A stretch of 47,265 bases of DNA from the IMG/VR virus record IMGVR_UViG_3300011443_000007, positions 1-47,265 of that record. One strand, written 5' to 3'. Under the pieces are notes generated by a model. That model did not search any database, was not told the DNA's origin, and saw only the letters and a program-made list of their open reading frames with translations. The DNA comes from a virus (taxonomy: Duplodnaviria > Caudoviricetes). This document shows, piece after piece, positions 18,413 through 35,648 of the stretch (its first letter is position 1; every line of letters starts with the position of its first letter). The position numbers and the translations under genes are program-made.

Positions 18413-18454
18413 GCGATGGGCCTCCTTAGCCCTTGACAGGTGTGATATAATAGA

Positions 18455-18670: not shown

Positions 18671-18690
18671 TTTATACGGGTCCGATGGTG

Positions 18691-19189: not shown

Positions 19190-19190
19190 C

Positions 19191-19784: not shown

Positions 19785-19984
19785 GGGTGGGTTACCTCTA
19801 ACTCTGGCAACAGAAACTCGATGTTGCCGGGATGCCCGCCTATCGATTTTGCAAACGGCGGAGGCGTCCAACTTGCTTCGTCGTCTTGGTCAAGGTCGCA
19901 CCACGCATTCCATTCGTCACGGTGCTCAGCCTCAACGAGATACCAATGTGAGTCTTGGTCGGTGTCGAGGAAATACTTCTTCAT
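19781..19984 (-). CDS. Small acidic hypothetical protein
   Basis: GGAG RBS; ATGA overlaps. Confidence 0.55.
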   Translation of the reverse strand: MKKYFLDTDQDSHWYLVEAEHRDEWNAWCDLDQDDEASWTPPPFAKSIGGHPGNIEFLLPELEVTHP

Positions 19985-20439
19985 GGCGTCTCCGTGGCAT
20001 CGAGGACCGATTTCGCGCTTGCCTGTTCGCCGCTTGGCGTCTCGTGTTGCCGGATGATGCGCCGCGCTGATTCGTGCCGCGATTCGCCCGGCACCTTGTT
20101 CGCCACTTCGTAGAGCAGTTCGTGATACAGCGCTTTGTAATCCGGCGTCTCAGTAGGCGTGGCATCGAGGAGGGCCAGAACGTCGTCCAGTCGAACAACT
20201 GTTTGCCCTTCCCACTCTGGTTCACGATAACGGTGGTCGTGGATGTCGCGTAAATCGTTGGGGAAATCGTTCTGGGATAACTGCTCAATCTGCGCTCGCA
20301 AGGAGGTGGCCTCTGGGGTGGCCCCTGCCTCCTCCTCCTGTTGCGTATGGCAAGGACAATCGCACGTCCACGGCGGGACCGCGTTCGCATGTCTCGCCAT
20401 ACAACACAGTCCACGGTCCTGTTGGGGTGTGCTCGTCAT
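19981..20439 (-). CDS. Mosaic hypothetical protein
   Basis: Coupled ORF; repeated LDAT(PT)ETP linker. Confidence 0.5.
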   Translation of the reverse strand: MTSTPQQDRGLCCMARHANAVPPWTCDCPCHTQQEEEAGATPEATSLRAQIEQLSQNDFPNDLRDIHDHRYREPEWEGQTVVRLDDVLALLDATPTETPDYKALYHELLYEVANKVPGESRHESARRIIRQHETPSGEQASAKSVLDATETP

Positions 20440-20443
20440 CGCT

Positions 20444-21490: not shown

Positions 21491-21494
21491 TGGG

Positions 21495-23387
21495 CTACTC
21501 CCCAAGCAATGCCTGTTCGGTCCAGATCATCTTCTTGACCCCGTTCTTGTGCCGCAGTTCGACCCCCCATCCGGTCGGAGTTGGGATGACGTAGAAGGTT
21601 CCGCCGATTGCCTTGGCAAGGGCCGCGGTGCTGATCTCAATCGTTTTCTCCATCCCCTTCAAGCCGCGGGGTTTGACCCTCAGCACCATCGCCGGGATTG
21701 GGGGAAGGTGCTCGACCTTTGCGGTATCCAGGCGGAGGGGGGTGAATCCCGTCACGGGCCACGATGCCCATTCGTTCTGCCGTTTGTCGATGTACGGGGC
21801 AGTAGTGGCCTGGTAGATGGAGTTGAAGGCCAGCATCGTTGGTACGCCGGTAAGGATGTGATGGAGCGACCCGGTTTGAATCGCCGTGAACATCTCCTCC
21901 CCTGTGAACTTGTTCATCCACCATCCCCCATTGTGGGCCTGGTCGACGGCGACATTCAGCGCCCGGATCAGTTTCTGCACAGGCTCAGGACCAGGTTCGC
22001 GGGCGAGCTCCGATACGGCGTTGAACAGGGGCATGAGAGATGCCCCACAACGGGCCCACTTCTCTCCGCCGATCGATCCACCGTTGAAGCCATAGCGGAG
22101 GATGTTGGTCAGGCGATTGCACCTGGCTCGGTGTCTCGATAACGTGAAGGGGTAGCAGCGATGATACACCTCCGACCGTTCCAGCTTCTGCTTGACGTGC
22201 GGATGGGGGAAGTATCCGACCACATGCCGGGCTTCACCGGAGAGGGCGACTGAACCGAACCGGAGCATCATCGAGGCAGCAAGGCCCAGCCACTTGCCGT
22301 TCTCGCCACCCATCGCGGATGCGTTGTAGAGTGCCGTGAGCATGAGGGCGATTTGTGATCCGGTTTTGCCAGAGGGGATGTCCATCTTCTCCCCCGCAAC
22401 TAGGCCCTTCAGCACGGCGAGGGGATCGGGGATCACATCCTCGGATTCTTTTTCGAGCACATCGCCTGGTGTCAGTTGACGCCCATCGAGCACAACTGGG
22501 ATCCCAAACGTCCGAGCGTGGACAGTGTAGTGATCCGTGAAGGAACCCCCGGGATGGTTCACGACGATGCCGAGAGTCTCGGAATGAGCTTTGATCACCC
22601 GCTCCCACTCAAGAAGGGAACCCTTCGCTTCCAGGACCTTCTCCACCGTCACCGTGGATGGGATGTAGTTCGCGGTGATCGCACCCATCCTTGGACCCGA
22701 CCGGAGCTGGGTGAAGTAGATCGTATCCCACTCCCCGGCGACGATCTCCATATACGGATCATCGTTCGGTGGGATCTCCGCTGCGGTGAGGAGCTTGGAT
22801 GGGAGATGCTCTCGCATCAACGGAATCGACACCGTATCGGACCCGTTCGTGGCCCCGTCGTTCCCCTTGCCGGCGGTGATGGATGTCGGGGTCCAGACAA
22901 CGTTCCATTTCGGCTTGGGGACGGGCTCCATCACCATCACCTCACCGTTCGGATCCGCCGCGAGGGTCTCGGTGAGCATCGCCTTCAGCTCATCGGAGGT
23001 GGTGATCACCTTACTGTCCACGAATCCGTGTCTGGGCGTGAGCGGGCACGGGCGGGCGAAGTAATCGCGGGGGAATCCAACCTTGACCATCCCATCCAGC
23101 GCAGTCAGGAACCCGTACACGCCTGGGACGCTGACCCCGTGGCTTGAGCCAATCCCGTGCTTTTTCAGGGCGATGACCCCTTTCCCCTTCTGCGTACGGG
23201 GGGTGAGGGACCATCCCGGGACGACCGCTGGGGTGGCCTCGTCCTGGATCTGCTGCCAGGTTTTGGTGATCTTCCCCGTCGCCGCATCGATCAGGTAATG
23301 CCCGTAATCCTTCTCGCACGCGTGGCATTTTTTGTGATTCCCACACCACGAACCGCCGCAGTTGAAGCACTTCGCTTGTGTGCCCAT
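21495..23387 (-). CDS. PPDK/PEP-synthase-like phosphotransferase: ATP-grasp-like + phospho-His swivel + unassigned C-terminal domain
   Basis: FARPCP..RHGFVDS and YFTQLR (ATP-grasp-like); GGSFTDHYTVHARTFGIP resembles the GGxTSHAAIVARxxGIP swivel motif. Confidence 0.75.
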   Translation of the reverse strand: MGTQAKCFNCGGSWCGNHKKCHACEKDYGHYLIDAATGKITKTWQQIQDEATPAVVPGWSLTPRTQKGKGVIALKKHGIGSSHGVSVPGVYGFLTALDGMVKVGFPRDYFARPCPLTPRHGFVDSKVITTSDELKAMLTETLAADPNGEVMVMEPVPKPKWNVVWTPTSITAGKGNDGATNGSDTVSIPLMREHLPSKLLTAAEIPPNDDPYMEIVAGEWDTIYFTQLRSGPRMGAITANYIPSTVTVEKVLEAKGSLLEWERVIKAHSETLGIVVNHPGGSFTDHYTVHARTFGIPVVLDGRQLTPGDVLEKESEDVIPDPLAVLKGLVAGEKMDIPSGKTGSQIALMLTALYNASAMGGENGKWLGLAASMMLRFGSVALSGEARHVVGYFPHPHVKQKLERSEVYHRCYPFTLSRHRARCNRLTNILRYGFNGGSIGGEKWARCGASLMPLFNAVSELAREPGPEPVQKLIRALNVAVDQAHNGGWWMNKFTGEEMFTAIQTGSLHHILTGVPTMLAFNSIYQATTAPYIDKRQNEWASWPVTGFTPLRLDTAKVEHLPPIPAMVLRVKPRGLKGMEKTIEISTAALAKAIGGTFYVIPTPTGWGVELRHKNGVKKMIWTEQALLGE

Positions 23388-23393
23388 CTGTTG

Positions 23394-23603
23394 TTATCTC
23401 CTTCTTTTCTTGTAGATGAGGTAAACCGCCTCGACACCCACCAGGTCCGGGTAAATGCGCCGGTCCGTCGGTGATGGAGTGACCGTTGACATGAACAGAT
23501 TCGTTGTCTCCTTGTACGTATCCCCGTCACCGAGCATCGCGGCCCGATGCGCCCCACATACCCAGGCGGGGATGTAAGTCATCGTCACCGGCGGCCGGTC
23601 CAT
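23394..23603 (-). CDS. Small hypothetical protein
   Basis: TAATG coupling. Confidence 0.5.
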   Translation of the reverse strand: MDRPPVTMTYIPAWVCGAHRAAMLGDGDTYKETTNLFMSTVTPSPTDRRIYPDLVGVEAVYLIYKKRRR

Positions 23604-23995
23604 TACTTCGCACCCGATCCGGGCTTGATCGGTTGGTAGACAACCTCTACCGATTCGATCTCATCCACCAGCGGCTGCGGGAGGGTGATCGAGAGCAGGT
23701 CGACGGGGATCGAGAAGTGAATCCCATCGGCCTGGGTGACACCCTTCCCGCCACCTTCCTTCTCCAACCGGCGATGGGCGAAGTTGATCCAGTTCGGCAC
23801 TGGGCCGGCGGGTGAGTATTTGGTGATGACGATTTCTTTCTTGTTATCTGTTTTCATCTCCTCCGCTTCCTTTGCGGCGGCATCGAGCCCCGCGGCGCTG
23901 AAGATGTCCTCACACTGATCGCACTCCCACCATTCGTCGTATCCCACACACGGGAAGAGGGTGTCAAGGCCACAGGTCGGACACTTGGTGTACAT
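23603..23995 (-). CDS. Zn-finger-containing hypothetical protein
   Basis: CPTC...CDQC; a second GGAG-ATG start is possible internally. Confidence 0.5.
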   Translation of the reverse strand: MYTKCPTCGLDTLFPCVGYDEWWECDQCEDIFSAAGLDAAAKEAEEMKTDNKKEIVITKYSPAGPVPNWINFAHRRLEKEGGGKGVTQADGIHFSIPVDLLSITLPQPLVDEIESVEVVYQPIKPGSGAK

Positions 23996-23999
23996 CGGT

Positions 24000-24263
24000 C
24001 TAACTCCCGTGATACGGGTCAGTGAGGGTGTGGGGTTTCAGGGCGATCCATATCTCATCCACCCCGCCGAGGACGAAGAATCGGGACCGATCCATGTCCT
24101 CGATCTTCAAGTGCATGACGACGTTTCCATCCTTATCCAGGGTGACCGACCCCCGGCCCAGGTGCGCGACTTGAGCGAGCAGATATGGCACTTCCGGCCA
24201 GAGGGTAGATGTCGAGAACTTCATCTTCGGCTCGGGCATCGCAGCGGTTGTGTCGATGATCAT
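24000..24263 (-). CDS. Hypothetical protein
   Basis: Coupled to the RapZ-like gene. Confidence 0.45.
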   Translation of the reverse strand: MIIDTTAAMPEPKMKFSTSTLWPEVPYLLAQVAHLGRGSVTLDKDGNVVMHLKIEDMDRSRFFVLGGVDEIWIALKPHTLTDPYHGS

Positions 24264-24646
24264 CACGTCCCCGCTACGTGGAGGAAGGAGTGATGGGACT
24301 TGGCGACGGCGTATCCGTTTGCATCGAGGTCCGCGAGAGCCAGCTCGACCATCGCGGTGGAGATCCACTTACCGTGATAGTCGTGGAAGGCGATGGTTGT
24401 CCAGTTCTGGCGCTCGGCTGCGATCATCCGGATGGCGTGTAGGATCGGCTCGACGCGGGGATCCTTGATGAGGAAATCCTGGACTTCCTTATCCCGCCCA
24501 TCCTTCCCGCGAAGGTGATGCTGCCCGATGGGGTCGCGTAGGCGGGAACAGTCAACCCGCCAGTGGAAGATGATCTGTGGCGTCGGCCGGGAGGTCGGGA
24601 TTGAGTACAACCCGACCTTCGCAAGCCCGATGGTTGTGATTGGCAT
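24263..24646 (-). CDS. RapZ C-terminal-domain-like protein, degenerate copy
   Basis: DCSRLRDP...LR..DG.D.EV..F, but DYHGKWIS replaces CxGGxHRS. Confidence 0.6.
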   Translation of the reverse strand: MPITTIGLAKVGLYSIPTSRPTPQIIFHWRVDCSRLRDPIGQHHLRGKDGRDKEVQDFLIKDPRVEPILHAIRMIAAERQNWTTIAFHDYHGKWISTAMVELALADLDANGYAVAKSHHSFLHVAGT

Positions 24647-24651
24647 GGTGA

Positions 24652-25122
24652 TCAGTATCCTAACCCGGCGAGATGCCGTTCAAGTTCTTGCTTCTTCTTG
24701 CCCTTCAGCAGGGTGAGGAAGTGCTTCCCCGCATGACCGTACGATCCCGACAACACCGATGAGTACTCAACCGTGCCGACATACGCGGTAGGGATGTTGA
24801 GGATCTCCGCAGCTTCCTGAAGATGTGTGAAGAAGTGATACCCATCGAACAAACCACCCGATGCGATAGTGAGAGGGTCAGGGAGCACGATTAGGTTGAG
24901 GTCCTGGTTGATCATCCCCCCAACCCTCATCACCTTCCGCAGCTTGCCGCGGATGACTGATGTGCCGTACCACTTGATCACCTCCGGGTGCTTGCAGTCA
25001 GGGCCTCGGAGGGCGACGATGACATCCCACTGCTGCTTAGGGGTGAACATCGCCCACTCGATCGGTGTCAGCGGCACCATCCTTCCTTCCCCCGTCGGCG
25101 GGGGGATGTCGTCAGTCGACAT
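24652..25122 (-). CDS. Unknown protein with WD-x4-LRGPD domain (paralogue B)
   Basis: Aligns by eye with 15948..16769. Confidence 0.65.
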   Translation of the reverse strand: MSTDDIPPPTGEGRMVPLTPIEWAMFTPKQQWDVIVALRGPDCKHPEVIKWYGTSVIRGKLRKVMRVGGMINQDLNLIVLPDPLTIASGGLFDGYHFFTHLQEAAEILNIPTAYVGTVEYSSVLSGSYGHAGKHFLTLLKGKKKQELERHLAGLGY

Positions 25123-25423
25123 GCTTCCAATCCTTTCCCGCCTTGAGTTGAGCGGTGATCTTCGCCTGATCCTTGAGCAGTGCTTCCTTCACCTGCGCCG
25201 GGGTGCGTTCCTTGAGCAGGTCGGGATGGGTGTCCATCTCCTTCCGAATCCGCTTCCCGATCTTGATCGATATCGTGATGTAATCGGGAGTGTCAGTTGA
25301 CTTCTTCCCTGAGTGGAGCCCAGCGGCCTCGATGTCATCGGCCAGGGCCAGGAACGGAGCGATCTCCTCCGGCTCCAGATGCACCTTCACCCCAGGGTAC
25401 TTGCCGCGTCGTTCGATCTTCAT
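25112..25423 (-). CDS. Basic hypothetical protein
   Basis: GGAG RBS; ATGA overlap. Confidence 0.55.
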   Translation of the reverse strand: MKIERRGKYPGVKVHLEPEEIAPFLALADDIEAAGLHSGKKSTDTPDYITISIKIGKRIRKEMDTHPDLLKERTPAQVKEALLKDQAKITAQLKAGKDWKHVD

Positions 25424-25566
25424 CGCTTCTCCAGTCCCTTGATGAGCAGATACATTCCCGACACGGCATAGGTGAGCTTGTCGATGGGGAATACGAACGA
25501 CAACATCCACACACCGACGCCGATGAAAAGGAGATCCAGCAGCAAGAGGATGATTATCATTGTCAT
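25420..25566 (-). CDS. Small two-TM membrane protein
   Basis: IIILLLLDLLFIGVGVWMLSFVF; ATGA overlaps. Confidence 0.55.
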   Translation of the reverse strand: MTMIIILLLLDLLFIGVGVWMLSFVFPIDKLTYAVSGMYLLIKGLEKR

Positions 25567-25850
25567 CGCCCCTTCCCATCCTTCCCGGGCCAGCCTGTGC
25601 CCTTGAGTGCGAACGACATCGCCCGTGGATGCCATTCCATCGGTTCGTTGCAAGCATCGCAGGTTGGCTGAACCGTCTGCACCAGCGGCGATTGCTCCGT
25701 CTCCTTGTGTGCCCCGCATCGGGGGCAGAGCCATTCCTTTATCACATGCACCCTCCTTTCAAAGATGGCGGCCTTGGGAACCTTCGGGATCTCTTCGGCG
25801 TTTACTGTGGTGATGGGGGATGGGGATTGAACCCATCCGCACGCGCTCAC
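25563..25850 (-). CDS. FmdB-like zinc-ribbon protein (true start probably later)
   Basis: CPRCG...CDAC..PM...F.LKGTGW pattern. Confidence 0.7.
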   Translation of the reverse strand: MSACGWVQSPSPITTVNAEEIPKVPKAAIFERRVHVIKEWLCPRCGAHKETEQSPLVQTVQPTCDACNEPMEWHPRAMSFALKGTGWPGKDGKGR

Positions 25851-25922
25851 AGACTCGCGGGGGAAGTCATGGGGATGGTGGGCACTCCACCCCCCGGCTT
25901 CTCCGGTGAATCTACCGAGTCA

Positions 25923-26120
25923 TCAATCCAACCCAAGATGGTTATGCGCCCTGATTAATGGTATCGCACCGCCCGAGTTGTTCACCTTTCGGTATCTCTT
26001 GTAACGTGCCCGTTCTGCTGCCTTGCGGCACTTGACACAGTATCGCGTGCCGGCGAATCGGGATTGGAAGAAGCGCCGACAGTCGTTGACCAATCTTGGA
26101 CACACGCGATACGATGCCAT
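25923..26120 (-). CDS. Small Cys-rich basic protein
   Basis: C-x6-C...YCVKC; TGATG coupling. Confidence 0.5.
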   Translation of the reverse strand: MASYRVCPRLVNDCRRFFQSRFAGTRYCVKCRKAAERARYKRYRKVNNSGGAIPLIRAHNHLGLD

Positions 26121-26632
26121 CACTTCGCCCCAGGACCGTTCGTCGTGACTGATGCCCATCCCCTTTGCCGCAGCTCCTCGGCCAGGATGTGCTTCATCGC
26201 ACGGCTGCGATGGATGCCATGCGCGCACATCGTGGCGATGATCACAGGCTTTGCGTACGGGGTGGTGTTTCCCAACCGACGGGTCGGGATCTGGTGAATC
26301 CCGTCCTCGATGATCTGGATGAACGAGTCGATGAACTTCCTCGACCGCAGCTTCACCCAGGCGATCACCTCGCCATCATCGCCAGTGAGGGTGGCAAGCT
26401 TCGGTTCCAGGAATGGGTTGGGGATCGGCCTGCAATCGAGGTAGTAATCCGCGCGGGGCATGGGGTGGTTATTCCCAACCCTCTTCCATCCATCGTTGAT
26501 GAGCACGATCTGCGCGACGTGCTTGGGCTTGATCATCGCTTGATCCAATTGTTTCCTCCAGGCTTCGTATCCGATGTTGGCGTAAAGTGCGAGCAGGTTG
26601 TCCATCATCACCAGAGATGTTTTAGATACCAC
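26120..26632 (-). CDS. RapZ C-terminal-domain-like protein, intact motif
   Basis: LDCRPIPNP...L..LTG.D..V and IATMCAHGIHRS...LAE.L match the RapZ/YvcJ C-terminal pattern. Confidence 0.75.
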   Translation of the reverse strand: MVSKTSLVMMDNLLALYANIGYEAWRKQLDQAMIKPKHVAQIVLINDGWKRVGNNHPMPRADYYLDCRPIPNPFLEPKLATLTGDDGEVIAWVKLRSRKFIDSFIQIIEDGIHQIPTRRLGNTTPYAKPVIIATMCAHGIHRSRAMKHILAEELRQRGWASVTTNGPGAK

Positions 26633-26802
26633 ACATCCACATCACGAAGATATCGTGATACGAATTGCTCAGCGGTTACTGGGTTTTCAAATCGATGAGC
26701 GCGGTGGATAGCGCGTGTCCAATACCAAGCTTCCTCATCATCCTCTAACCACGCAATATACCGTGCCGTGTTAGCAGATGTGACAATAACCCGGTTCATC
26801 AT
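26608..26802 (-). CDS. Small hypothetical protein
   Basis: ATGA coupling. Confidence 0.45.
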   Translation of the reverse strand: MMNRVIVTSANTARYIAWLEDDEEAWYWTRAIHRAHRFENPVTAEQFVSRYLRDVDVWYLKHLW

Positions 26803-27080
26803 CGCCCCTGCTGGGAATTGTACAAGGCCGCACCGCATCCCGCACCGGCGAGGGCGATGGGGAGGATTGCCTTTCCCTTCCCCGATGGCGTCTTGAACCA
26901 CACCATCATCGCGGCGGTGTTGATGGTGAGTTTGAATCCAATCCGTCGGGATTTGGTCTGGAGAAACGGATTACCTTCCCGCAGTTGGTTAGAGCGATTG
27001 AGTGCCCGTTCGGTTGAGACGAAATCCGCGGCCTGGCATCCAATCCAAGCTGCGAGGATGATTGAGGATCCGATGCCCAT
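26799..27080 (-). CDS. Membrane protein, DUF5658-like
   Basis: AD..ST..AL....E.NP motif with hydrophobic helices. Confidence 0.55.
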   Translation of the reverse strand: MGIGSSIILAAWIGCQAADFVSTERALNRSNQLREGNPFLQTKSRRIGFKLTINTAAMMVWFKTPSGKGKAILPIALAGAGCGAALYNSQQGR

Positions 27081-27162
27081 GCCTCACGCTTCCTTTCGTA
27101 GATGGTTTGGGGTGGGTTGAACAGGTAATCGATGATCTCCTCAACCCAAGATCGTAGTGTCA

Positions 27163-27516
27163 TCAGTCAATCCCTAACAAGATCCGTTCGATGGATGTGA
27201 GGGCGGGCACGAGCCCGCCCGACTCATCCGATGATGTGAATCGACCCCCACCGATTCCCATCACCATCCGCGCTGTCTTGGCACGCTGCTCCCATCCCCA
27301 TCGAGTGGATGGGTTTGGGGTGACGATTGCTTTGAATCCAACCGGCACGGGAGCCATCGTCTTGGCGATGGTCTGGGAAAGGGAAGGGAATCCCACATCC
27401 ATCCGTCTCGCCTGGGGTTGGGCAAACCCGCGTGTATCGTCCCGTAACTGTGCTGGTAAACCGTTCTGGCAGTGAGCGCAGAATGCGATGGGTAATCCCG
27501 TGTGATAGCAGTTCAT
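27163..27516 (-). CDS. Hypothetical protein with N-terminal C-x-H...C-x2-C
   Basis: GGGAG RBS. Confidence 0.5.
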   Translation of the reverse strand: MNCYHTGLPIAFCAHCQNGLPAQLRDDTRGFAQPQARRMDVGFPSLSQTIAKTMAPVPVGFKAIVTPNPSTRWGWEQRAKTARMVMGIGGGRFTSSDESGGLVPALTSIERILLGID

Positions 27517-27629
27517 CGGATGCGCTCCCTGGGAGGTTGATAAATCTACCGTTTCATCATCATCGCCGCGATAGGTGATGAATCCATCATCCCTCGCAAG
27601 CCTGGGTGATATCTAACCGATCTGCTGAG

Positions 27630-27661
27630 AAAAAGGATGAGGGGCGGGATTGCCCCTCATC
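27630..27661 (-). terminator. Intrinsic terminator after the first leftward gene
   Basis: 10-bp stem GATGAGGGGC/GCCCCTCATC with a T5 tail on the - strand. Confidence 0.75.
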
Positions 27662-27710
27662 TGTCGGTGGCGTGGAGGGGCGACTAACTCCCTCACTAGG
27701 TCGGTTGTTT

Positions 27711-28160
27711 TTACGCCTTCTTCGCTGACGTGATCCGGTTTACCACGTCGCCGAGTGCCATCAGTTTGTCCATTTGGCTGAGCGTGCCGAACACCGCTTC
27801 CGTGCTGGACTGCTGGCCAAGCGTGAACATGGTTCGCTTTTCCTTGGCGAGCTGTTCCGCCGCTTCCAGATCCTTCGCTTTGCGCTCGTTTGCCCGCTGG
27901 TCCTTGACTGCCGCGACTGCCGCTGACTCTTCGTTCCCGACAGGTTCGCGGGTGATATACAGGCTAATCGACGCGACAACGGGTGTGTCCCCGATCTTGA
28001 TCGTGCGCTTGATCCGCTCCGAGCAGAGCACAACCCCTGCTTGCGTGAACTCGGTCGACTCGCCGGGACCGAATGACTCCAGCCACGTTCGGGGAAGCTG
28101 AACGGGACCGAGCAGGATCGACTCCTCAGCGACGGCGGGCAATTCTGTCTTTTTCGCCAT
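27711..28160 (-). CDS. First leftward early protein (unknown function, coiled-coil C-terminal half)
   Basis: Clean ORF between the control region and a terminator. Confidence 0.7.
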   Translation of the reverse strand: MAKKTELPAVAEESILLGPVQLPRTWLESFGPGESTEFTQAGVVLCSERIKRTIKIGDTPVVASISLYITREPVGNEESAAVAAVKDQRANERKAKDLEAAEQLAKEKRTMFTLGQQSSTEAVFGTLSQMDKLMALGDVVNRITSAKKA

Positions 28161-28282
28161 TGTGTGTGTGTGCCTTTCTACCGTGCGCCTTATTGCGTCT
28201 TATCGGTGTGTGTGTGGGCCCATGCCCATGCGCTCGCATACGTGCGTGTATGCTTGCGTCTGTGTGTGTGTGTGTGTGTGTG
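28161..28282. repeat. (TG)n/(CA)n microsatellite tracts
   Basis: (TG)6 at 28161-28172, (TG)5 at 28207-28216, (TG)11 at 28261-28282. Confidence 0.95.
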
Positions 28283-28349
28283 CGCTGTCGGTGTGCCGTG
28301 GTGCAGTGGAGCTAGGCGGTGGAGCTAGGGGAACCGACGGCCGGGACTA

Positions 28350-28365
28350 AGCACGGCGCATGCCA
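28350..28365 (-). promoter_or_regulatory. Sigma54 -24/-12 box 1 (TGGCATGCGCCGTGCT)
   Basis: GG-N10-GC with TGGCAY. Confidence 0.6.
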
Positions 28366-28549
28366 AGTTCCGGGACCGGGGCAGAGCAGCCCCAAACCGC
28401 CGGAAGTGTCAGCCCCAGAACAGGCCTGAGAAGGGGCCTAGCGTGCCTCAGGAGCGGCGATCGGCTATTCCGGCGGCCTGCCCCTTCATAGCTTCGCTTT
28501 TCGGGCGAAGGTATGGCTTATAACGCGCCGGTGTGTCAGACAGTCCTAC

Positions 28550-28565
28550 AGGCATAGGGTTTGCT
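28550..28565 (+). promoter_or_regulatory. Sigma54 -24/-12 box 2 (AGGCATAGGGTTTGCT)
   Basis: GG-N10-GC with TTGCT. Confidence 0.65.
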
Positions 28566-28698
28566 TACAGGCTAACCTATTGGCCGATCTTACCGCCTGG
28601 GGCGTAAGCCCTTTCCTTTCAACAGGATACAACAGGCTAAGATCTTGCCTATACCGGCCAAGATCTTGACCGGTTCATCCTAAGACACCGACACGGCA

Positions 28699-28714
28699 TG
28701 GCATGGAGTTTGCA
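28699..28714 (+). promoter_or_regulatory. Sigma54 -24/-12 box 3 (TGGCATGGAGTTTGCA)
   Basis: Near-consensus match. Confidence 0.7.
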
Positions 28715-28725
28715 AGGGGCAAACC

Positions 28726-28741
28726 TGGCACGGCGTTTGCT
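28726..28741 (+). promoter_or_regulatory. Sigma54 -24/-12 box 4 (TGGCACGGCGTTTGCT)
   Basis: Perfect TGGCACG-N4-TTGCW. Confidence 0.8.
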
Positions 28742-28757
28742 TACACCATACCGGACT

Positions 28758-28773
28758 AGCATAACCCGTGCCA
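28758..28773 (-). promoter_or_regulatory. Sigma54 -24/-12 box 5 (TGGCACGGGTTATGCT)
   Basis: Near-consensus match. Confidence 0.7.
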
Positions 28774-28810
28774 TTCGCCTTTCCTTCCCTGTGTCGATCC
28801 TGCCAAAGAG

Positions 28811-28896
28811 TGTGGTTAGATTACCACACCGATAAGTGGCTGAGCCTACAGGCTTTACACGTAATCGGCGTATGATGGTGTGGTAAACTTACCACA
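28811..28896. promoter_or_regulatory. Pair of 18-bp palindromic operators, TGTGGTWA-NN-TTACCACA
   Basis: Copies at 28811-28828 and 28879-28896. Confidence 0.7.
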
Positions 28897-28946
28897 GTGC
28901 GGGCTAGGTGACGGTTGGATCTCCCCTCTAACTGAAGCAAATCCGA

Positions 28947-28962
28947 TGGCATAGGGGTTGCT
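28947..28962 (+). promoter_or_regulatory. Sigma54 -24/-12 box 6 (TGGCATAGGGGTTGCT)
   Basis: Near-consensus; predicted +1 near 28973, then an RBS and ATG at 28988. Confidence 0.75.
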
Positions 28963-28987
28963 TATGTAATGGGTGAAGGGAGACCGT

Positions 28988-29098
28988 ATGAGCCACTACA
29001 TGTTAATCGCGTTGGGCGTCTCACTGGTGTTCAGCGTCGGGTTTGTGGTCGGAGCGGCATGGGCTGGGCTCAGAAGGGAGAATGATGATGACGTTTGA
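28988..29098 (+). CDS. 36-aa single-TM micropeptide (MSHYMLIALGVSLVFSVGFVVGAAWAGLRRENDDDV)
   Basis: GGGAG RBS directly after box 6; not in the ORF track. Confidence 0.55.
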   Translation: MSHYMLIALGVSLVFSVGFVVGAAWAGLRRENDDDV

Positions 29099-29118
29099 GA
29101 CCCTGTGGCGCAAGTGGA

Positions 29119-29134
29119 TGGCACACCGCTTGCA
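29119..29134 (+). promoter_or_regulatory. Sigma54 -24/-12 box 7 (TGGCACACCGCTTGCA)
   Basis: Near-consensus; upstream of the wHTH gene. Confidence 0.7.
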
Positions 29135-29249
29135 GTGCTGGAAGCTAGGGCGGATCAAGAGTCGGATCGTCGTCAGAGCGTGAGTGAAAGTCAGACCGGA
29201 ATCCGCGTTAGTAGATAGGCGGCAATAACGCCGCGAAAAGGGGCAGACA

Positions 29250-29663
29250 ATGAAAAAGACCACCCGCAAGACCCACACGGCCACGGCCACGTCACCCAAG
29301 GCGATCCCCGCCGCGATCGTCGCCGCTGGCCCCGTTCCAACCCCGTCACTGACAATGACGGACATGATCGCCGCACTTCACTCCCTGGGGCTGAGGATCG
29401 TTCCCGGAGCAGGGGCAGAGCAGCCCAAGCCAAACACACTTCCGATCATGTCGGGTCCGCGCGTGCTTTACTCGGTCCCGAAAAACCCCGTTCCCCCGTT
29501 CGGGGAGTCGGCACTCGCCGTGTTCGAGTGGCTCAAAGCGCATCCCCACGCCAGCCAAGGCGATCTCGAAACGGGAACGGGTATGACGGAAGGGCAGATC
29601 AAAGGGGCGATTCGTCAGCTTGCGCTCGCCGGTTATGTCGTCAAGGAACGCGCCGAGCAGTAA
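29250..29663 (+). CDS. Winged-helix DNA-binding protein with basic N-terminal tail
   Basis: VFEWLKAHP.ASQGDLETGTGMTEGQIKGAIRQLALAGYV. Confidence 0.7.
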   Translation: MKKTTRKTHTATATSPKAIPAAIVAAGPVPTPSLTMTDMIAALHSLGLRIVPGAGAEQPKPNTLPIMSGPRVLYSVPKNPVPPFGESALAVFEWLKAHPHASQGDLETGTGMTEGQIKGAIRQLALAGYVVKERAEQ

Positions 29664-30048
29664 GATCGATCATGGGGCTGGAGCACAATGCTCCAGCCCC
29701 ACCCCCCCAACCCATCACGAAAAAATCACCATAAAAACAAAAGACTCGATCGCCCTGCTCGCACTGGCCGGAATGGTGTGGATCATTCTGCTGGTGTTGA
29801 CGACAGGCTGCACGTCGATCAACCCCGTCGCACCGACTCCAGCCCCAGTTCCGATCCCCTCTCAGCCAATGGACGTTCCTGCGTTCGTCGACCCCGCCAG
29901 CCTGCCCGTTGTGGTTGTGGCTCCCAACCCGACCCCGACCCCGATCCCGCCGCATGCCGATCCCGTCGTCGTGACATGTCAGGCATTGTGCATTCCCGGT
30001 TACAGGCCAACCGCCGACGGTTGCGGGTGTGTGAAGGTGCGCAAGTGA
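29620..30048 (+). CDS. Pro-rich lipoprotein with C-terminal Cys motif (start uncertain)
   Basis: Hydrophobic signal ending LTTG-C; PVAPTPAP linker; CQALC...GCGC. Confidence 0.55.
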   Translation: MRSPVMSSRNAPSSKIDHGAGAQCSSPTPPTHHEKITIKTKDSIALLALAGMVWIILLVLTTGCTSINPVAPTPAPVPIPSQPMDVPAFVDPASLPVVVVAPNPTPTPIPPHADPVVVTCQALCIPGYRPTADGCGCVKVRK

Positions 30049-30175
30049 GCCGCCACTCGACGGCGCATAACCCGCCGATCCACTTGATGCTGATGATCAT
30101 GGAGCAAACACCGCGCCCGCCCAGGAAGCCACGTAAACCCCGCACGTAGTAAGCGACACAACCCCGCACTCACAC

Positions 30176-30215
30176 AAGGGCGATTAGGCTAACAACCTAG
30201 TCGCCCTTTCTTTTT
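30176..30215 (+). terminator. Intrinsic terminator
   Basis: AAGGGCGATTAGG/CCTAGTCGCCCTT stem followed by TCTTTTT. Confidence 0.85.
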
Positions 30216-30380
30216 GCCCGCATGCCGTCGATGCATCCGCATCCCATCTGACATGCTCCCATCCCATCCGGGGGGAGGGGGGATTAGGATGAGGATGCAT
30301 CCGCGCCTAGCCATCCGCGAAATTATTGCCCCGATTGCATGTCAACTGACACCGGGGGGTGGGGGTGTCATCGTTGTCAC

Positions 30381-30410
30381 TTGACATTCACATGCTTTGT
30401 ATGATACAAT
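30381..30410 (+). promoter_or_regulatory. Sigma70-type promoter, TTGACA-N18-TACAAT with extended TG, for the packaging operon
   Basis: Sequence match; ATG 8 nt downstream. Confidence 0.7.
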
Positions 30411-30418
30411 CCTCTCCC

Positions 30419-30784
30419 ATGTCAAGTACTTTTCTCCAGCAGGGCCCGCATCCAGGTAACGGGGCTGAGCCCTCAGACCCCGATACCTCCTTTACCCCAA
30501 TCCCCTCCTCGGGCGTCTCGCGGACCCCGACCCTTGCCCCCGCTAGTGCCTCCACCATCACCCAGCTCATCTGCGATGAGCGGGCTATAGCGTCCCTGCT
30601 GGAGAACCTTCTCTACCGGTCTGGCCTTACCTTGAACGAAGCCGCACGTAGGCTGGGCATCACTCCCTCGACGTTGAGGCAGTATACATCCGGGCGCAGG
30701 AGCAGGCCCAGCCTAATTTGGTTCGTCCGGTTTGCCTCGATGTGCGGGGCGCGGATCTCCCTTGACCTGCCGGAGAAACGGTGA
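30419..30784 (+). CDS. XRE-family HTH protein
   Basis: SGLTLNEAARRLGITPSTLRQYTSGRR.RPSL. Confidence 0.8.
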   Translation: MSSTFLQQGPHPGNGAEPSDPDTSFTPIPSSGVSRTPTLAPASASTITQLICDERAIASLLENLLYRSGLTLNEAARRLGITPSTLRQYTSGRRSRPSLIWFVRFASMCGARISLDLPEKR

Positions 30785-31110
30785 TCTACAAGCTCTGGCT
30801 GCGGATTCAGGCAGATGCGATCGGGAGCGATGGCTGTACTCATGCGCTCGAACTCGCCCGGGATTGCTGCCTTGAACATGACCTTGGCTACTACTACGGG
30901 CGAGACCCCAGGAGTGCCTATCGCCTGTTCAGGCAAAACCTAGTTCCGGCTGGGATCAGCCACTTTGACAACGCATCCCCCATCACCCGCGGGGAGGTCG
31001 ATGCCCGGTTCCGGCGCTGTAACCCGCCCCTAGTCGGGTGGTATCGGTGGATCGCAGTCCGCATCGGTGGAAGGAGAGCATGGAAGAGACATCGTTCCCA
31101 GCGCCCGTAG
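30781..31110 (+). CDS. Prokaryotic phospholipase A2-fold (DUF1353-like) protein
   Basis: DGCT, CCLEHDLGY, VDARF and AVR.GG motifs. Confidence 0.65.
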   Translation: MIYKLWLRIQADAIGSDGCTHALELARDCCLEHDLGYYYGRDPRSAYRLFRQNLVPAGISHFDNASPITRGEVDARFRRCNPPLVGWYRWIAVRIGGRRAWKRHRSQRP

Positions 31111-31556
31111 TAAAGGCCACCCTGCCGAGTGAGGATGAGGCGAACCAGTTTTGCATCATGTTGAGTGCGGGTCTGCCCCCCGAGCAGGCGATACTCTACT
31201 TCACCACCGAGGACGACGCGGGGATCATCGCGGAGATGTTGAGGAAGTGGATCAGGTCCCGGGCGGTGCAGAAAGCCCAGCGCGCCCTCCTTGGCAAAGC
31301 ATGGCAGGACATGACTCTTGATGAACGGATCGAGCATGGTCTTACACAGCATTACAATTCGCTTGCGTATCTCCTGTTCAGCCAGAACTATAGCTCTGTG
31401 GGACCAGCCGATAAAGCGAAGCTGGATTCCGCTCGGCAAGCACTTGAGGCGAAGAAAGCTGGCACGGCTGGCCAGGGAACACCGCTGGATAGATTCCTAG
31501 ACGACATGCGGAGCGGGAAGATCAAGACCATGCCCCAGCCGGTGAAGGCGCATTAG
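31080..31556 (+). CDS. Probable terminase small subunit
   Basis: AGGAG RBS; helical; directly upstream of the large subunit. Confidence 0.5.
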   Translation: MEETSFPAPVVKATLPSEDEANQFCIMLSAGLPPEQAILYFTTEDDAGIIAEMLRKWIRSRAVQKAQRALLGKAWQDMTLDERIEHGLTQHYNSLAYLLFSQNYSSVGPADKAKLDSARQALEAKKAGTAGQGTPLDRFLDDMRSGKIKTMPQPVKAH

Positions 31557-33085
31557 TGGCTGGGAAGGTATCCAACGACGATCGGGACACCATCATCAGC
31601 TCCTTCCGGGAGCGGGTGTGTGAGCAGATGGGCGTCGCCCCGTTTCTCCACCAGAGGGAAGTCTGGGCGGCATCGGATGGGCTGGAGCTGACCTATGAAG
31701 AACCAACCCCCGGGGTTGATGGACTTACTATCCGCACTGAGAGCGGAGAGATTCAGCGAATTGGATACACTCCTCGCAAGGCTGGCCGTGCGCGGTTCCT
31801 CAGCGATCTCGGAGCGTTCAAGATCGGAAAAAGCTACGGAGCCGCTCTCTGGGCATCCGGATTCGCCGCCGTCCCCGGAGCAGTCGTCAACCTAGTCGGG
31901 CTGGAATACGACATCTGCGAGCCAGAGTTTACCTACCTGTGTGAGTTCCTCCTCTCTGCCGATGGGATGAACATGTCCAAGGGCTCGACTTGGACAAACC
32001 GGGCACGCGACGGGAAGATGTTCATGGATCTCGTCACGGGGGCCAAGTTCGTCGCCCGGTCGTGGGAGCGGAAAGATACCCTGAAAGGAAAGGAAATCGA
32101 TGCCTACGTATACTGCGAGGCTTACCAGCTTCCAGGTATTGAGTGCTTTACGTCATTTAGCCAAAATCTCCGAGCTCGACGAGGATACGCATACTTCGCT
32201 ACGACTCCAGATCGACCTTGGATCAAGCTACTCCACGAGCTTGGTCATGGAGGCGATCCCGAGTGGCATTGCACCTGTAGCGTCCCCGCCGATGCCAACC
32301 CCTACACCTTCGATCAAATAAGCAAGGATCGTGACAAGAAGCTGATGACGACGGAGAAGTATCTGATCCACTACGAGGGTCAGATGGGGGATTTCATCGG
32401 GCGGGTGTTCAACTACGCGAAGGGCCAGTATGTATTCACGCCTGCGAGCCATCCTCAGTTGTTTGACGACCACGGCCAGCTTCGTGTCCCAGCTCATTGG
32501 GAGGTTGTGGGCGGGGCTGACACTGGAACCTATCACTCCGCCCTCCTTGTGGCCTTTGATCCGGATGGGAACGCCTATGTGCTCTCCGAACACCCGAACT
32601 ACCGTTACGTCGCGGGATCTCTTGAAAGAGATGAATCTCTTACTATCCCCGCATGGGGTCGTGCTATCAGTCGTACCGCACTTGGGTACGGAGGAAGGAC
32701 TACCTTCTGGGCTGATAGTAACAGTCAGTTCAAAGGAGAACTTCGGAATTACGGCGTCGTACTTCTCCCTGCGAAGGTCCCGGTTGAAACAAGAACTGAG
32801 ATCACGCGGGAATACTTCGAACACCGAAGGGTGTTCCTAGCTCCGTGGTTGGATGTGCTCCCTTTCGAACTGGAGAACGCATCCTGGCCTGAAGAGGCGA
32901 CCGCATCGGGGAAGTTCGCTAGGATCAAAGACCGCGATCACACCCTCGACTGCCTTGAGCACATCCTGGCCCGTCGGCCGTTCGGACGGACCAACCCCCA
33001 CACGCAACGGACCGGCTCCTGGGCGGCATCGATGGGGTTTAGGAAGAAACAGTTATCACACAACGTTCACATGGGGAGAATGTAG
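31556..33085 (+). CDS. terL: Terminase large subunit
   Basis: GAFKIGKS Walker A, YVYCEA Walker B variant, FATTP, nuclease motifs GADTG and DHTLD. Confidence 0.85.
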   Translation: MAGKVSNDDRDTIISSFRERVCEQMGVAPFLHQREVWAASDGLELTYEEPTPGVDGLTIRTESGEIQRIGYTPRKAGRARFLSDLGAFKIGKSYGAALWASGFAAVPGAVVNLVGLEYDICEPEFTYLCEFLLSADGMNMSKGSTWTNRARDGKMFMDLVTGAKFVARSWERKDTLKGKEIDAYVYCEAYQLPGIECFTSFSQNLRARRGYAYFATTPDRPWIKLLHELGHGGDPEWHCTCSVPADANPYTFDQISKDRDKKLMTTEKYLIHYEGQMGDFIGRVFNYAKGQYVFTPASHPQLFDDHGQLRVPAHWEVVGGADTGTYHSALLVAFDPDGNAYVLSEHPNYRYVAGSLERDESLTIPAWGRAISRTALGYGGRTTFWADSNSQFKGELRNYGVVLLPAKVPVETRTEITREYFEHRRVFLAPWLDVLPFELENASWPEEATASGKFARIKDRDHTLDCLEHILARRPFGRTNPHTQRTGSWAASMGFRKKQLSHNVHMGRM

Positions 33086-33088
33086 ACA

Positions 33089-33337
33089 ATGGCATCCTAC
33101 CAGGATCTCGAAACCAGAATGCGCGTCGTTGAAGCGAAGATTGATCTTGTGATGAAGTCGTTCCAGATCACGAAACGATACGAGCACCCGCTCGTCCCGG
33201 GGCAGGTGATCGAGGAACGGAAGTCCCTCCTCGACGTATACCACGAACTGAACCATCACGGGATCACGGTCGAGAATCCGCCCCCGATGGTTAACACCGA
33301 CCCGACTACAGAGCAGGTAACGGACAATGGCGAATAG
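33089..33337 (+). CDS. Small hypothetical protein
   Basis: Lies between terL and portal. Confidence 0.55.
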   Translation: MASYQDLETRMRVVEAKIDLVMKSFQITKRYEHPLVPGQVIEERKSLLDVYHELNHHGITVENPPPMVNTDPTTEQVTDNGE

Positions 33338-35648
33338 TTACGAGAACGATAAGGGCCTGGAGGCCAATGGGCCGGCAGTCAGCCACACCCCCGATACCGG
33401 GGATGGGCTCCTAGAGGAGCTGGAGAAGGATTTCGAGCGCCTCAAGGCCCAGAAAGCTCGACCCACCGGCGGTGTCGAGGGATCGGTGCTCCTGCACCTT
33501 TCCTTTCTCGATGATGAGCAGTATACCAACTACAAGAACAAAACCCTCTCCCTTGAGGCCCAGGATGCGAATAAGCTTTACCTGACCTTCAACTTGATCA
33601 CCCCCCGGTGGAACAAGCTGCTGGGACGGCTGAGCGCGTTCAACGCTCCCTTCAAGGCTCGGCCGAACAAGAAAGACCCCCAGGCGCTTGAGGAAGCCGA
33701 GATCGTCGACCGGATGACCATCGCCCTTGACGAGAAGCTGGATGACCCAAGCCGGCTCCGGGAGACGCTCTGGTGGATGGGCGTGGGCGGGACTTCCTTC
33801 CGCCACATCACATGGATCCCCAACGCGACGATCGAGCCGAATCCTCAGTTTGATGAGGCCGGCGAGTTGTTGTTCAAGTTCGACACGCCTGACGGCCCGA
33901 TGACCGTCACGGAGACTGAACGGGATGAGATGATCGAAGCAGGGATGTATCCCCCGGAAGCGTTTGAAGTCTACGAGGAAGTCGAACTTGTCGGGGAGGT
34001 CGGTGACGAGACACTGAACCCCCTCCAGGTGTTCATCGACCAGACCGTCCGCTCGGTCCAAGACCTCGCTCCGGATCAGTGGGTGCACGTCGCCGTGCCG
34101 CGGACACTGGGATGGATCAAGGAGAACTTCAACGAGGATGTCGAACCCCAGTCGGAGATCAACATCATCACCTCCAAGATCCGGGCTGAAGGCGAGTCTG
34201 GTGGCGGGAGGAACCTCAAGGACCTGATCCCCCTCATCCAAGGCTCGTGTGACGAGAACGATCCGAAGATGGCCCTCGTGATCCAGTCCTACCAATGCGC
34301 CTCCACTGATCAGCCCAAGGGTCGCTACGTGTGCTGGATCCCGAAGGATCGCATTCTCCACGATGCTGATAACCCGTATGAGGAAATCCCCCTCGTTGAC
34401 TTCCACTGGTCGCCAGTGACAACCTCGTTCTGGACGAAAGGTTACATCGCCCCACTCATCGCCCCGCAGCGGTTCATTAACAAGCGCATGTCCCAGCTTG
34501 GCGAACAGTCCAATGCCGCGATCTACTCCAACATCCTCCTCGGCGGCGGACTCAAGGCCGGTGATATCCCCGCTGACTTCCCCGGCGTGGTCGAGAACGG
34601 GATCGACGAGAACGGAATGCCGAACATCCAGCGCACACCCCCGCCCGAGCTCGGGTCGTGGTTCCTCCCCTCGATCGAGATGGCGGTCAAGATGTTCAAT
34701 GACTCCGCCGGCGGAGCCGACCTGATGGAGGACAACAAGTTCCCCGGCCAGCTCCGGGGACCGATGGCCGTCCCGATGCTCCAGGAGATCATGGACACCC
34801 AATGGGGGCCGTTATTCGCCCACCTGGGTGAACGCCTCAGCCGGGTCAAGCAGATGCGCCTGAACCGGGTCAAGCAGTTCTACCCGCCGCTTCGGACCCT
34901 CCACTACACCTCCAAGGACCAACGCGATGAGGTGATTACCTTCCACACCGAGGAGGTGCTCAGGTCCGGGACGAACTTCTCCATCACCGTCGAACGCGGC
35001 GCGATGATGCCGGAGCTCCGTGCCTTGCGTGAGGCTCGGGTCAGCGAACGGATGGCAGGCCCCCTTGCGATCCTCTACATGGACGAACGCACTGGCCGGC
35101 CCGACAAGAGCAAAATCGCCGCGGATCTCCAGTTCGGGGATGTCGGCAGGGAGGCAAGAGAGTCACAATACCGGAAGCTCGCACTGGAGATCATCAAGAT
35201 GCTCTGGTCGGGTAAGACCCTACCCCCCGTCCAGCCCTTCTACGACCATGGCGTGATGCTTGATGAGCTCGAAAGTGCGATGGCGACGACGGAGTTTCTC
35301 AAAGCAAGCCCCCAGATCCAGCAAATATTCAGCGATCGCTGGTCCCAGCACACCCAGTATCTGCAACAGGAAGCGATGGCCCAGCAACAGTCAATGCAAA
35401 ATGGGATGATCCACAACGCCGTCGCCCAGGCAACCCAGCAAGCAGCCGCCACTGCCGCCGCCCAAGCTATCGAACAGGCATCGTTCCAGCAGCAGGCCCA
35501 GAATGCCCAACCGACGGATCAATACATGGCCCAGGCTCAGGCTCAGGCTCAGGCCGGAGCACAAGCCCAGCAGGTAACGGAGCAAAGGGCACCGAAACCG
35601 AAGGCTAAATCGCGCAAAATCACCCTAGAAGAGAAAGGCGGCGACTGA
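33327..35648 (+). CDS. Portal protein (podovirus type, Gln/Ala-rich C-terminal barrel)
   Basis: Size, position after terL, L...Q..IN motif and long Q/A helix. Confidence 0.8.
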   Translation: MANSYENDKGLEANGPAVSHTPDTGDGLLEELEKDFERLKAQKARPTGGVEGSVLLHLSFLDDEQYTNYKNKTLSLEAQDANKLYLTFNLITPRWNKLLGRLSAFNAPFKARPNKKDPQALEEAEIVDRMTIALDEKLDDPSRLRETLWWMGVGGTSFRHITWIPNATIEPNPQFDEAGELLFKFDTPDGPMTVTETERDEMIEAGMYPPEAFEVYEEVELVGEVGDETLNPLQVFIDQTVRSVQDLAPDQWVHVAVPRTLGWIKENFNEDVEPQSEINIITSKIRAEGESGGGRNLKDLIPLIQGSCDENDPKMALVIQSYQCASTDQPKGRYVCWIPKDRILHDADNPYEEIPLVDFHWSPVTTSFWTKGYIAPLIAPQRFINKRMSQLGEQSNAAIYSNILLGGGLKAGDIPADFPGVVENGIDENGMPNIQRTPPPELGSWFLPSIEMAVKMFNDSAGGADLMEDNKFPGQLRGPMAVPMLQEIMDTQWGPLFAHLGERLSRVKQMRLNRVKQFYPPLRTLHYTSKDQRDEVITFHTEEVLRSGTNFSITVERGAMMPELRALREARVSERMAGPLAILYMDERTGRPDKSKIAADLQFGDVGREARESQYRKLALEIIKMLWSGKTLPPVQPFYDHGVMLDELESAMATTEFLKASPQIQQIFSDRWSQHTQYLQQEAMAQQQSMQNGMIHNAVAQATQQAAATAAAQAIEQASFQQQAQNAQPTDQYMAQAQAQAQAGAQAQQVTEQRAPKPKAKSRKITLEEKGGD

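Follow-up and report, generated by a model that had tools for sequence, protein, structure and literature searches.

What might a phage gain from seven sigma54-like boxes of the TGGCAY-N5-TTGCW type, set in both orientations within 785 bp (28350-29134) of its genome? The window, i.e., the whole stretch of DNA analyzed here, is an entire virus record of 47,265 bp whose completeness was put at 100% by CheckV. It has a podovirus-like gene layout with two arms diverging from a gap: the leftward arm, which starts at 28160, comprises small genes and replication genes, and the structural arm runs rightwards from 30359. The genome also encodes an SU10-type adaptor and an internal virion protein, and no tRNA genes were found in its 47,265 bp. 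Near-identical DNA was present in three freshwater-sediment runs and one groundwater run. Comparisons of terminase, capsid, portal, or polymerase identified neither a close cultured relative nor a host, a search of 185,579 prokaryote genomes with only two peptide patterns retrieved no terminase relative, and the array DNA had no meaningful match in the phage collection. Terminase relatives were obtained at 160 loci from viral and metagenome collections, 81 of which were non-redundant. The landmarks of the genome are as follows:

27711..28160, minus strand: opening gene of the leftward arm, encoding a 149-aa protein of no family; a terminator-like hairpin (27661-27636) comes after it
30381..30410, plus strand: sigma70-type promoter TTGACA-18-TACAAT ahead of the genes for a conserved HTH protein and the small-terminase-like and large-terminase-like proteins
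31556..33085, plus strand: large-terminase-like gene, the anchor for the relatives, which precedes the portal gene
33327-35648, structural arm: portal
36920-38197, structural arm: major capsid

The large-terminase-like gene has no Pfam or PHROG match and matches an annotated terminase weakly (E 7e-5). Atlas matches of the 149-aa protein were all under 0.8 and uninformative on function. A family A DNA polymerase is split over two adjacent ORFs (9583-12145), and homologs of both halves occur in G001 and G002. Among the products of the small-gene block are two proteins with a RapZ C-terminal domain and a protein-tyrosine-phosphatase-like protein (24263-24646, 26120-26632, and 20444-21505), and a small-gene block with RapZ-domain genes is common to the window and its relative L008. 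In many bacteria, rapZ sits in the rpoN operon. L008 likewise encodes a homolog of a 630-aa ORF (21495-23387) that lacks Pfam and PHROG matches, and in which a motif resembles, by eye, the phosphohistidine swivel of PEP-utilizing enzymes.

The seven boxes are distributed over the array as follows:

28350..28365, minus strand: box 1, TGGCATGCGCCGTGCT, predicted start 28339
28550..28565, plus strand: box 2, AGGCATAGGGTTTGCT, the weakest of the seven (AGG for TGG), with no gene start after it
28699..28714, plus strand: box 3, TGGCATGGAGTTTGCA, perfect, predicted start 28725, abutting box 4
28726..28741, plus strand: box 4, TGGCACGGCGTTTGCT, perfect, 27 bp after box 3, predicted start 28752
28758..28773, minus strand: box 5, TGGCACGGGTTATGCT, facing box 4 (offset 32) and pointing into the early arm, predicted start 28747
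28947..28962, plus strand: box 6, TGGCATAGGGGTTGCT, perfect, predicted start 28973
29119..29134, plus strand: box 7, TGGCACACCGCTTGCA, perfect, inside a 33-aa ORF

A preliminary description of this DNA had reported seven such boxes, and all of them were recovered, position and strand alike, with the refinement that boxes 1-6 lie within the non-coding gap 28161-28987 and box 7 within the 33-codon ORF. Five of the seven point away from the early arm. All four perfect TGGCAY-N5-TTGCW matches of the genome, and seven of its ten matches with at most one mismatch, fall inside the 785-bp stretch. In 5,000 dinucleotide shuffles of 28161-29249 the mean was 0.07 boxes and the maximum three, and the Poisson probability of at least seven boxes at the genome background rate is ~1e-11, corrected for 60 windows. 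The weight-matrix scan that had been proposed as a check on enrichment gave a concordant result: with a matrix trained on 557 boxes from other viral contigs, six of the boxes rank 1st-6th genome-wide and the seventh ranks 8th.

In the boxes, whose context is TGGCAY-N5-TTGCW, exactly 10 bases separate the GG at -25/-24 from the GC at -13/-12. Two positions that were not in the search pattern show preferences of their own: -27 is a pyrimidine in 71% of the boxes from the terminase family (n = 42) and in 84% of boxes from arrays (n = 339), and -20 is a purine in 73 and 96% of the same sets, respectively. A hand tally of the E. coli sites OS01-OS42 gave a pyrimidine at -27 in 30/42 and a purine at -20 in 36/42 (PMC4591121, Table 1). 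In the family boxes, information is limited to the span from -27 to -10 and the spacer letters are free; such confinement, together with the E. coli-like preferences at unsearched positions, fits a host factor and not a phage iteron. Moreover, the 16 letters of box 7 are those of the ChIP-mapped E. coli glnK sigma54 site (PMC4591121, Table 1, OS03). Sigma54 is near-universal in LPS diderms (PMC3162934); in vivo it is mostly bound as inactive holoenzyme, and an ATPase is needed to open the DNA (PMC4591121; PMC2731916). The genome has no match at E<=1 either to PF00158, the activator domain, consistent with the earlier remark that no phage enhancer-binding ATPase was seen, or to PF04552, the sigma54 DNA-binding domain, and neither family exceeded its cut-off in 28 other related or array-bearing records, of which 15 are at least 90% complete. 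These data support the interpretation of the boxes as host sigma54 sites for which the phage supplies no activator of its own. The activator is taken to be a host protein.

The other elements and the small genes of the region are:

28635..28671: two GG..AAGATCTT..CC palindromes, 21 bp apart, containing the sole AAGATCTT copies of the genome
28811-28828 and 28879-28896: two perfect TGTGGT-N6-ACCACA palindromes between the divergent boxes 5 and 6
28988-29098 and 29082-29183, plus strand: two small ORFs of 36 aa (with a hydrophobic stretch) and 33 aa, without homolog in related loci
29250..29663, plus strand: protein of 137 aa with a winged HTH at its C-terminus, which resembles MarR but scores below the Pfam cut-off

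A downstream gene start with a ribosome site follows box 6 and, with longer leaders, boxes 1 and 7, but not boxes 2, 3, and 4. Box 6 appears to be the best promoter candidate of the array: it is followed by AAGGGAG and by an ATG at 28988, 25 nt past the box. Box 1 is the likely promoter of the early arm, with a 179-nt CA-rich leader from its predicted start, AGAAAGG, and then the ATG of the first leftward gene. This leader does not fold better than its shuffles (z = -0.76), and no structured RNA with an Rfam match at E<=1 was detected in 27400-30800. CA-repeat leaders between an inward box and the first early gene occur in the window (28161-28290) and in the distant relatives L022, L031, and L117. 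For box 7, the next ATG is 105 nt from the predicted start. Boxes 3, 4, and 5 had been judged too crowded for independent use, with boxes 4 and 5 facing each other, and their geometry bears this out: boxes 3 and 4 are 27 bp apart, and the predicted starts of boxes 4 and 5 (28752 on the plus and 28747 on the minus strand) cross by 5 bp.

The TGTGGT-N6-ACCACA pair is centered ~70-150 bp upstream of the predicted starts of boxes 5 and 6, and TGTG-N10-CACA has no other copies in the genome besides this pair in 28811..28896. Sites arranged as TGT-N12-ACA are characteristic of several Fis-type activators. The pair is a candidate shared enhancer, and the AAGATCTT palindromes are a candidate activator site for boxes 3-4 or the operator of a phage HTH protein; indeed, all candidate enhancers of the window could instead be operators of such a protein. 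Activators typically bind ~150 bp upstream (PMC2731916), and both palindrome pairs are placed at distances that would suit activator sites ~80-150 bp from a promoter. Neither type of palindrome is conserved in the relatives, among which no family-wide enhancer motif was found. The 137-aa winged-HTH protein has only three homologs and is absent from related loci. IHF sites with at most one mismatch are lacking in 28100-30400 of the window, and consensus or one-mismatch sites lie near the G-motif described below in some relatives, L089, L105, and L117 among them.

In agreement with the preliminary description, there is no consensus sigma70 promoter in 27400-30380, and the sole one in 27400-30800, at 30381, faces the packaging genes. 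Strong sigma70 matches at 17558, 17038, 15288, 14532, and 10732 serve replication genes, and those at 30381 and 35857 serve the structural arm; for the block 17,900-28,160, no strong site was found, and two 9-of-12 matches are the only ones there. The match at 17038 is that of an AAA_25 helicase-like gene (17078-17962), which lies on the plus strand within the leftward arm. Since replication and structural genes have their own sigma70 sites, the sigma54 sites would govern the terminal small-gene block and a short rightward operon (28988-30149, ending at a hairpin at 30176-30208), not the whole program. The earlier suggestion that early transcription is gated by a host signal therefore has to be narrowed: it is favored for part of the array, by the geometry at boxes 1 and 6 and by a sigma54/sigma70 swap in sister relatives (see below), but the gate would extend to the terminal small-gene block only.

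The position of the array relative to the genome end was deduced from two features:

30115..30359: probable terminal repeat or genome end, 245 bp, a separate contig in run X1
30270-30282: GGGGGGAGGGGGG, the G-motif, within the high-depth segment

The segment 30115-30359 has a depth of 37.2 vs. 12.4 elsewhere in run X1, from which the contig may stem; in run X3 its depth is 6.6 vs. ~2-5, and runs X2 and X4 show nothing clear, so that the depth signal is present in one of four runs and weakly in a second. The segment, which contains the rightward terminator-like hairpin at 30176-30208, is probably a terminal repeat, although G-runs can break assemblies on their own. GGGGGGAGGGGGG occurs in 51 of the 81 non-redundant relatives, typically 70-110 bp before the sigma70 promoter of the HTH-terminase genes, and 15 of these 51 contigs begin within ~250 bp of it. 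The motif is a candidate terminase or end signal. With 30115-30359 as the terminal repeat, the array would lie 1.0-1.8 kb inside one end; from the G-motif it is 1.15-1.9 kb away, behind a block of small genes. A 4,253-bp end repeat of G001 was also considered as terminus evidence and dropped, as it does not start at the G-motif. A contig of run X4 (depth 2.4) departs from the window at 16 sites in 29686-29739, with A>G and C>T changes and a hairpin loop that is inverted. In the sequence of this contig, the hairpin 29673-29701 is followed by a T-tail, and a lipoprotein-like ORF that ends at 30048 has a Shine-Dalgarno sequence and an ATG at 29731; the version in the window, also found in X1, could result from a hairpin-induced miscall or could be a decayed allele.

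The proposal to look for the array in related phages proved fruitful: nine of the ten nearest relatives keep boxes in the gap, with one to six each. In the 2 kb left of the G-motif, boxes with the 5-bp spacer number 41 in 61,649 bp, or 6.65 per 10 kb, a count that includes the seven of the window and refers to the 51 non-redundant loci with the motif; off this region the density is 0.42 per 10 kb, and spacers of 3, 4, 6, and 7 bp gave 0.32-0.65. Across the family, the window included, the boxes number one to seven in either orientation, and tandem spacings of 25-30 bp occur in the window, L003, L008, L085, and L086. Start codons lie 23-25 nt past the box in four family boxes, namely box 6 of the window and three in L089. 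A Shine-Dalgarno sequence and start 14-60 nt downstream accompany 6/41 family boxes, compared to 1/41 in the reverse direction, and 35/41 have no close gene start behind them. In a quick rather than careful terminase tree of the 37 loci with the anchor and enough upstream DNA, which left out 44 of the 81 and has long branches in the clade of the window, boxes are present in 10 of the 11 members of this clade (window included) and in 7 of the 26 members of a distant clade. The distant clade has a single inward box 144-198 bp from the G-motif, followed by a 75-90 nt leader and the first gene. ATCCA-N6-TGGAT palindromes lie upstream of the box in 5 of the 17 box-bearing loci, all in one subclade, and in none of the 20 box-less loci; the figure of 17 includes L098, which is counted because GG was allowed in place of GC at -12.

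Where the box is missing, a leftward sigma70 promoter may take its place. By a strict rule, set after the sequences had been inspected, such a promoter stands at the place of the box in 5/20 box-less vs. 0/17 box-bearing loci, 15 of the 20 box-less loci being without one; a looser rule gave 9/20 vs. 3/15, and as the loci are related, neither contrast is a test on independent samples. In the sister pair L116, with a box, and L135, with TTGACA-17-TAGGGT, the first ATG is 254 and 253 nt from the G-motif, respectively, and here a sigma70 promoter directly replaces the sigma54 box. A GGTCA..TGACC-like element was rejected as a sigma54 enhancer, as it occurs in 3/17 box-bearing and 4/20 box-less loci. 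Repeated GG(G/T)CA..TGACC elements, in up to four copies, are found left of the G-motif in L044, L123, L156, L117, and L098, with or without sigma54 boxes, and are a possible operator of the conserved HTH protein. In L013, a 28-bp tandem of perfect boxes is located 4480 and 4508 bp after the terminase start on the minus strand, antisense to the structural arm.

Such arrays are not confined to this family. The tandem-pair pattern is estimated to occur in ~1,600 stretches of IMG/VR compared to ~140 for a wrong-spacer control (~11x), these values being extrapolated from 5/64 and 56/64 parts, respectively, of the collection; 90 of 100 distinct control matches were spaced in multiples of three, like coding repeats. 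Facing pairs 17-22 bp apart, a pattern without a matched control, occur in ~1,100 viral stretches. Viral arrays contain as many as 22 boxes, pointing both ways, within ~680 bp, and the unrelated phages that bear them share the consensus while spanning 28-65% G+C. In prokaryote genomes, the tandem pattern was found in ~2,000 stretches in 596 billion bases. At least four boxes were present in 10 of the 120 prokaryotic matches seen, all of them on one strand, vs. 51 of 125 viral loci, and none of these 120 matches was a mixed-orientation array. A gene start lies close behind 6/216 boxes in the dense arrays of other phages (control 4/214). Among arrays of at least four boxes with long flanks, 16/37 lie upstream of a terminase gene that faces away from them, at a distance of no more than ~4 kb, a count for which 72 of 113 flanking ORFs were scanned and in which ~8 of the 16 look like one family.

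The spacing of neighboring boxes follows a rule. Adjacent tandem spacings at 99 independent viral loci comprise 56 of 25-29 bp, 7 of 30-34 bp, and 29 of 35-39 bp, with P = 3e-4 for the trough at 30-34 bp, and 102 loci that had not been selected for tandem spacing gave 12, 1, and 4, respectively. As the peaks include 26, 28, 29, 35, and 37 bp, codon periodicity does not explain them. Spacings of ~2.5 and ~3.5 helical turns place neighbors on opposite faces of the DNA, and the avoidance of three turns may reflect selection for sites that a bulky protein can occupy simultaneously. With its 27 bp, the pair of boxes 3 and 4 falls into the main peak, the commonest spacing class of phage arrays. Two unannotated families, phrog_1392 and phrog_1617, recur beside arrays (L174, L182, L228, L231, and L253), as do amidoligase genes (L200, L202, L235, and L252). 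BLAST of three dense arrays against cultured phages yielded only short matches at chance level. The Vibrio phage Wyman (OQ095915.1; L667), a cultured T5-like phage, was rejected as an array bearer, as it has single boxes instead of an array; its two perfect boxes are in the terminal repeat at 518-533 and 3739-3754, one 518 bp from the left end and the other upstream of the A2 gene.

Taking the sequence evidence together, we see about an even chance that the array is a host sigma54-holoenzyme promoter and polymerase-loading hub for the terminal early genes, near the probable end of a linear genome. Several boxes at a time would be occupied by host sigma54 holoenzyme in silent closed complexes; a host activator would later switch on some of these boxes. 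The leftward block of small early genes would be driven by boxes 1 and 5, and transcription from boxes 6 and 7 would cover the short rightward operon up to the hairpin in the terminal repeat; the terminator-like hairpin behind the first early gene counts against this reading. A host enhancer-binding protein might bind the TGTGGT-N6-ACCACA palindromes that separate boxes 5 and 6 or might work from solution, and the tight boxes 2-4, instead of being independent promoters, may hold extra holoenzyme on alternate helix faces, either as a local reserve or as a mutual-exclusion element. If general packaging rules apply, the array end would enter the cell first. A more far-reaching interpretation, which is tentative and less likely than not, is that in many environmental phages the first DNA to be injected is a helically phased deck of sigma54 sites. 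Such a deck would capture several host polymerases in silent closed complexes, would start the takeover genes only once a host enhancer-binding protein signals a favorable physiological state, and after replication would act as a sponge that shuts down the host sigma54 regulon. If true, a lytic phage could first sense and later silence its host purely in cis, without any protein of its own.

Four other explanations have to be weighed against the loading hub. Boxes that are ordinary multiple promoters, every one firing alternately or as part of a switch (the 3/4 tandem, the 4/5 facing pair) with nothing held in reserve, would account for the promoter geometry at boxes 1, 6, and 7 and for the single-box relatives with a leader, Shine-Dalgarno sequence, and upstream palindromes, and the left end of LUZ19 has five strong host promoters (bioRxiv 10.1101/2023.10.13.562163). 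We nevertheless consider this unlikely, as alternate use needs no helical phasing, yet spacings of 30-34 bp are avoided, and arrays of up to 22 boxes in ~680 bp and facing pairs 17-22 bp apart have no gene starts.

It is quite unlikely that the array is a pure decoy that titrates sigma54 or its holoenzyme off host promoters, e.g., of the envelope-stress or RNA-repair regulons, and has no part in phage transcription. A decoy had already been proposed in the preliminary description, and the tight pairs indeed look built for simultaneous binding; phased packing in both orientations, the variable copy number, the ~11x excess over the wrong-spacer control in viral contigs with no mixed-orientation array among the 120 prokaryotic matches, and the inactive state of bound holoenzyme in vivo (PMC4591121) all agree with it. 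As a sink at entry, however, it is weak: seven sites per genome face >250 estimated for E. coli (PMC4591121), too few for depletion, so that titration could matter only after replication. Besides, several relatives keep only one well-placed box, and others have a sigma70 promoter in its place.

A structural role at the genome end, in which bound holoenzyme would anchor or pull the entering DNA, shield it from nucleases, or mark the replication or packaging end, could explain why the nearest box in relatives is often 31-200 bp from the G-motif and why 16/37 dense arrays of other phages are found upstream of a terminase gene pointing away. It is very unlikely, though, given that the array of the window is 1.15-1.9 kb from the motif, 20/37 relatives have no box there, the box cluster of the Alteromonas phage discussed below is far from its terminase gene, and roadblocking by sigma54 was not seen in E. 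coli. Finally, that the boxes are iterons or operators of a phage-encoded protein that resemble the sigma54 consensus is highly improbable, despite two-orientation repeats beside a probable genome end and two HTH genes nearby, because they do not look like full-length element-specific repeats for an element-encoded protein: spacer letters vary freely, unrelated phages share the consensus and its E. coli-like preferences, PF04552 is unmatched in the window and the 28 other records, relatives lack the winged-HTH gene, and the conserved HTH, present in 66 family loci or stretches, is far more widespread than the boxes.

Returning to the loading hub, its sites have much in common with known sigma54 promoters. 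The E. coli sites have the same motif with rigid GG-N10-GC spacing, box 7 equaling the glnK site, and those in the tables of that study are single or in divergent pairs >100 bp apart, in contrast to seven in 785 bp in the window (PMC4591121). Like host sigma54 promoters, boxes of the window have short leaders and candidate palindromic enhancers ~70-150 bp upstream; unlike the E. coli sites, they include a 27-bp tandem and a facing pair, in a phage genome without an activator gene. The T7 promoters A1-A3 are tandem host-polymerase promoters at the first-entering end. However, T7-like promoters are of the sigma70 type, activator-free, and mostly one-way, whereas the boxes of the window are two-way, too tight for independent firing, and, as proposed here, silent until activated. 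In a 2008 study of the Pseudomonas phage YuA, sigma54 sites reportedly serve the structural region. In the window, by contrast, sigma70 sites accompany the structural and the replication genes, and it is the small-gene block that has the boxes at its head. YuA resembles the window in relying on host sigma54 besides sigma70, so that phage use of this factor is already known, and in the portion of the ONT-cappable-seq report that covers it, it has one sigma54-like promoter and no array is described (bioRxiv 10.1101/2023.10.13.562163). The promoters P002-P006 of LUZ19 form, as in the window, a host-promoter cluster near the genome end ahead of small early genes (bioRxiv 10.1101/2023.10.13.562163). 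Repeated sites on synthetic DNA decoys or sponges can sequester a regulator, a sigma factor (ECF11) included; these decoys have tens to hundreds of copies, and the relevant sections of that article describe no natural phage sigma54 sponge (PMC7686491).

In the literature searched, mostly open papers without their supplements, no description of sigma54 site arrays in phages was found. New here are the periodicity in box spacing, the exchange of a sigma54 box for a sigma70 promoter, and the depth signal that points to a terminal repeat. Given ~1,600 tandem-pair and ~1,100 facing-pair viral stretches, the arrays would be a common part of phage biology that this literature leaves undescribed, and as sigma54 needs a signal-controlled host ATPase, first genes behind such sites would tie infection to host physiology with no sensor encoded. 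The closest counterpart in a cultured phage is the Alteromonas phage vB_AmeM_PT11-V22 (MN877442), with four boxes (69888 minus, 70202 plus, 70230 plus, and 70248 minus) in a gene-free block at 69366-70986. They form a 28-bp tandem and an 18-bp facing pair, like the tandem and facing pair of the window, but V22 is an unrelated myovirus, its sites are not annotated in MN877442, and the cluster is not beside the terminase gene. The spacing rule and the sigma54/sigma70 swap lend themselves to direct tests, and V22 offers a cultured phage that possesses the module.
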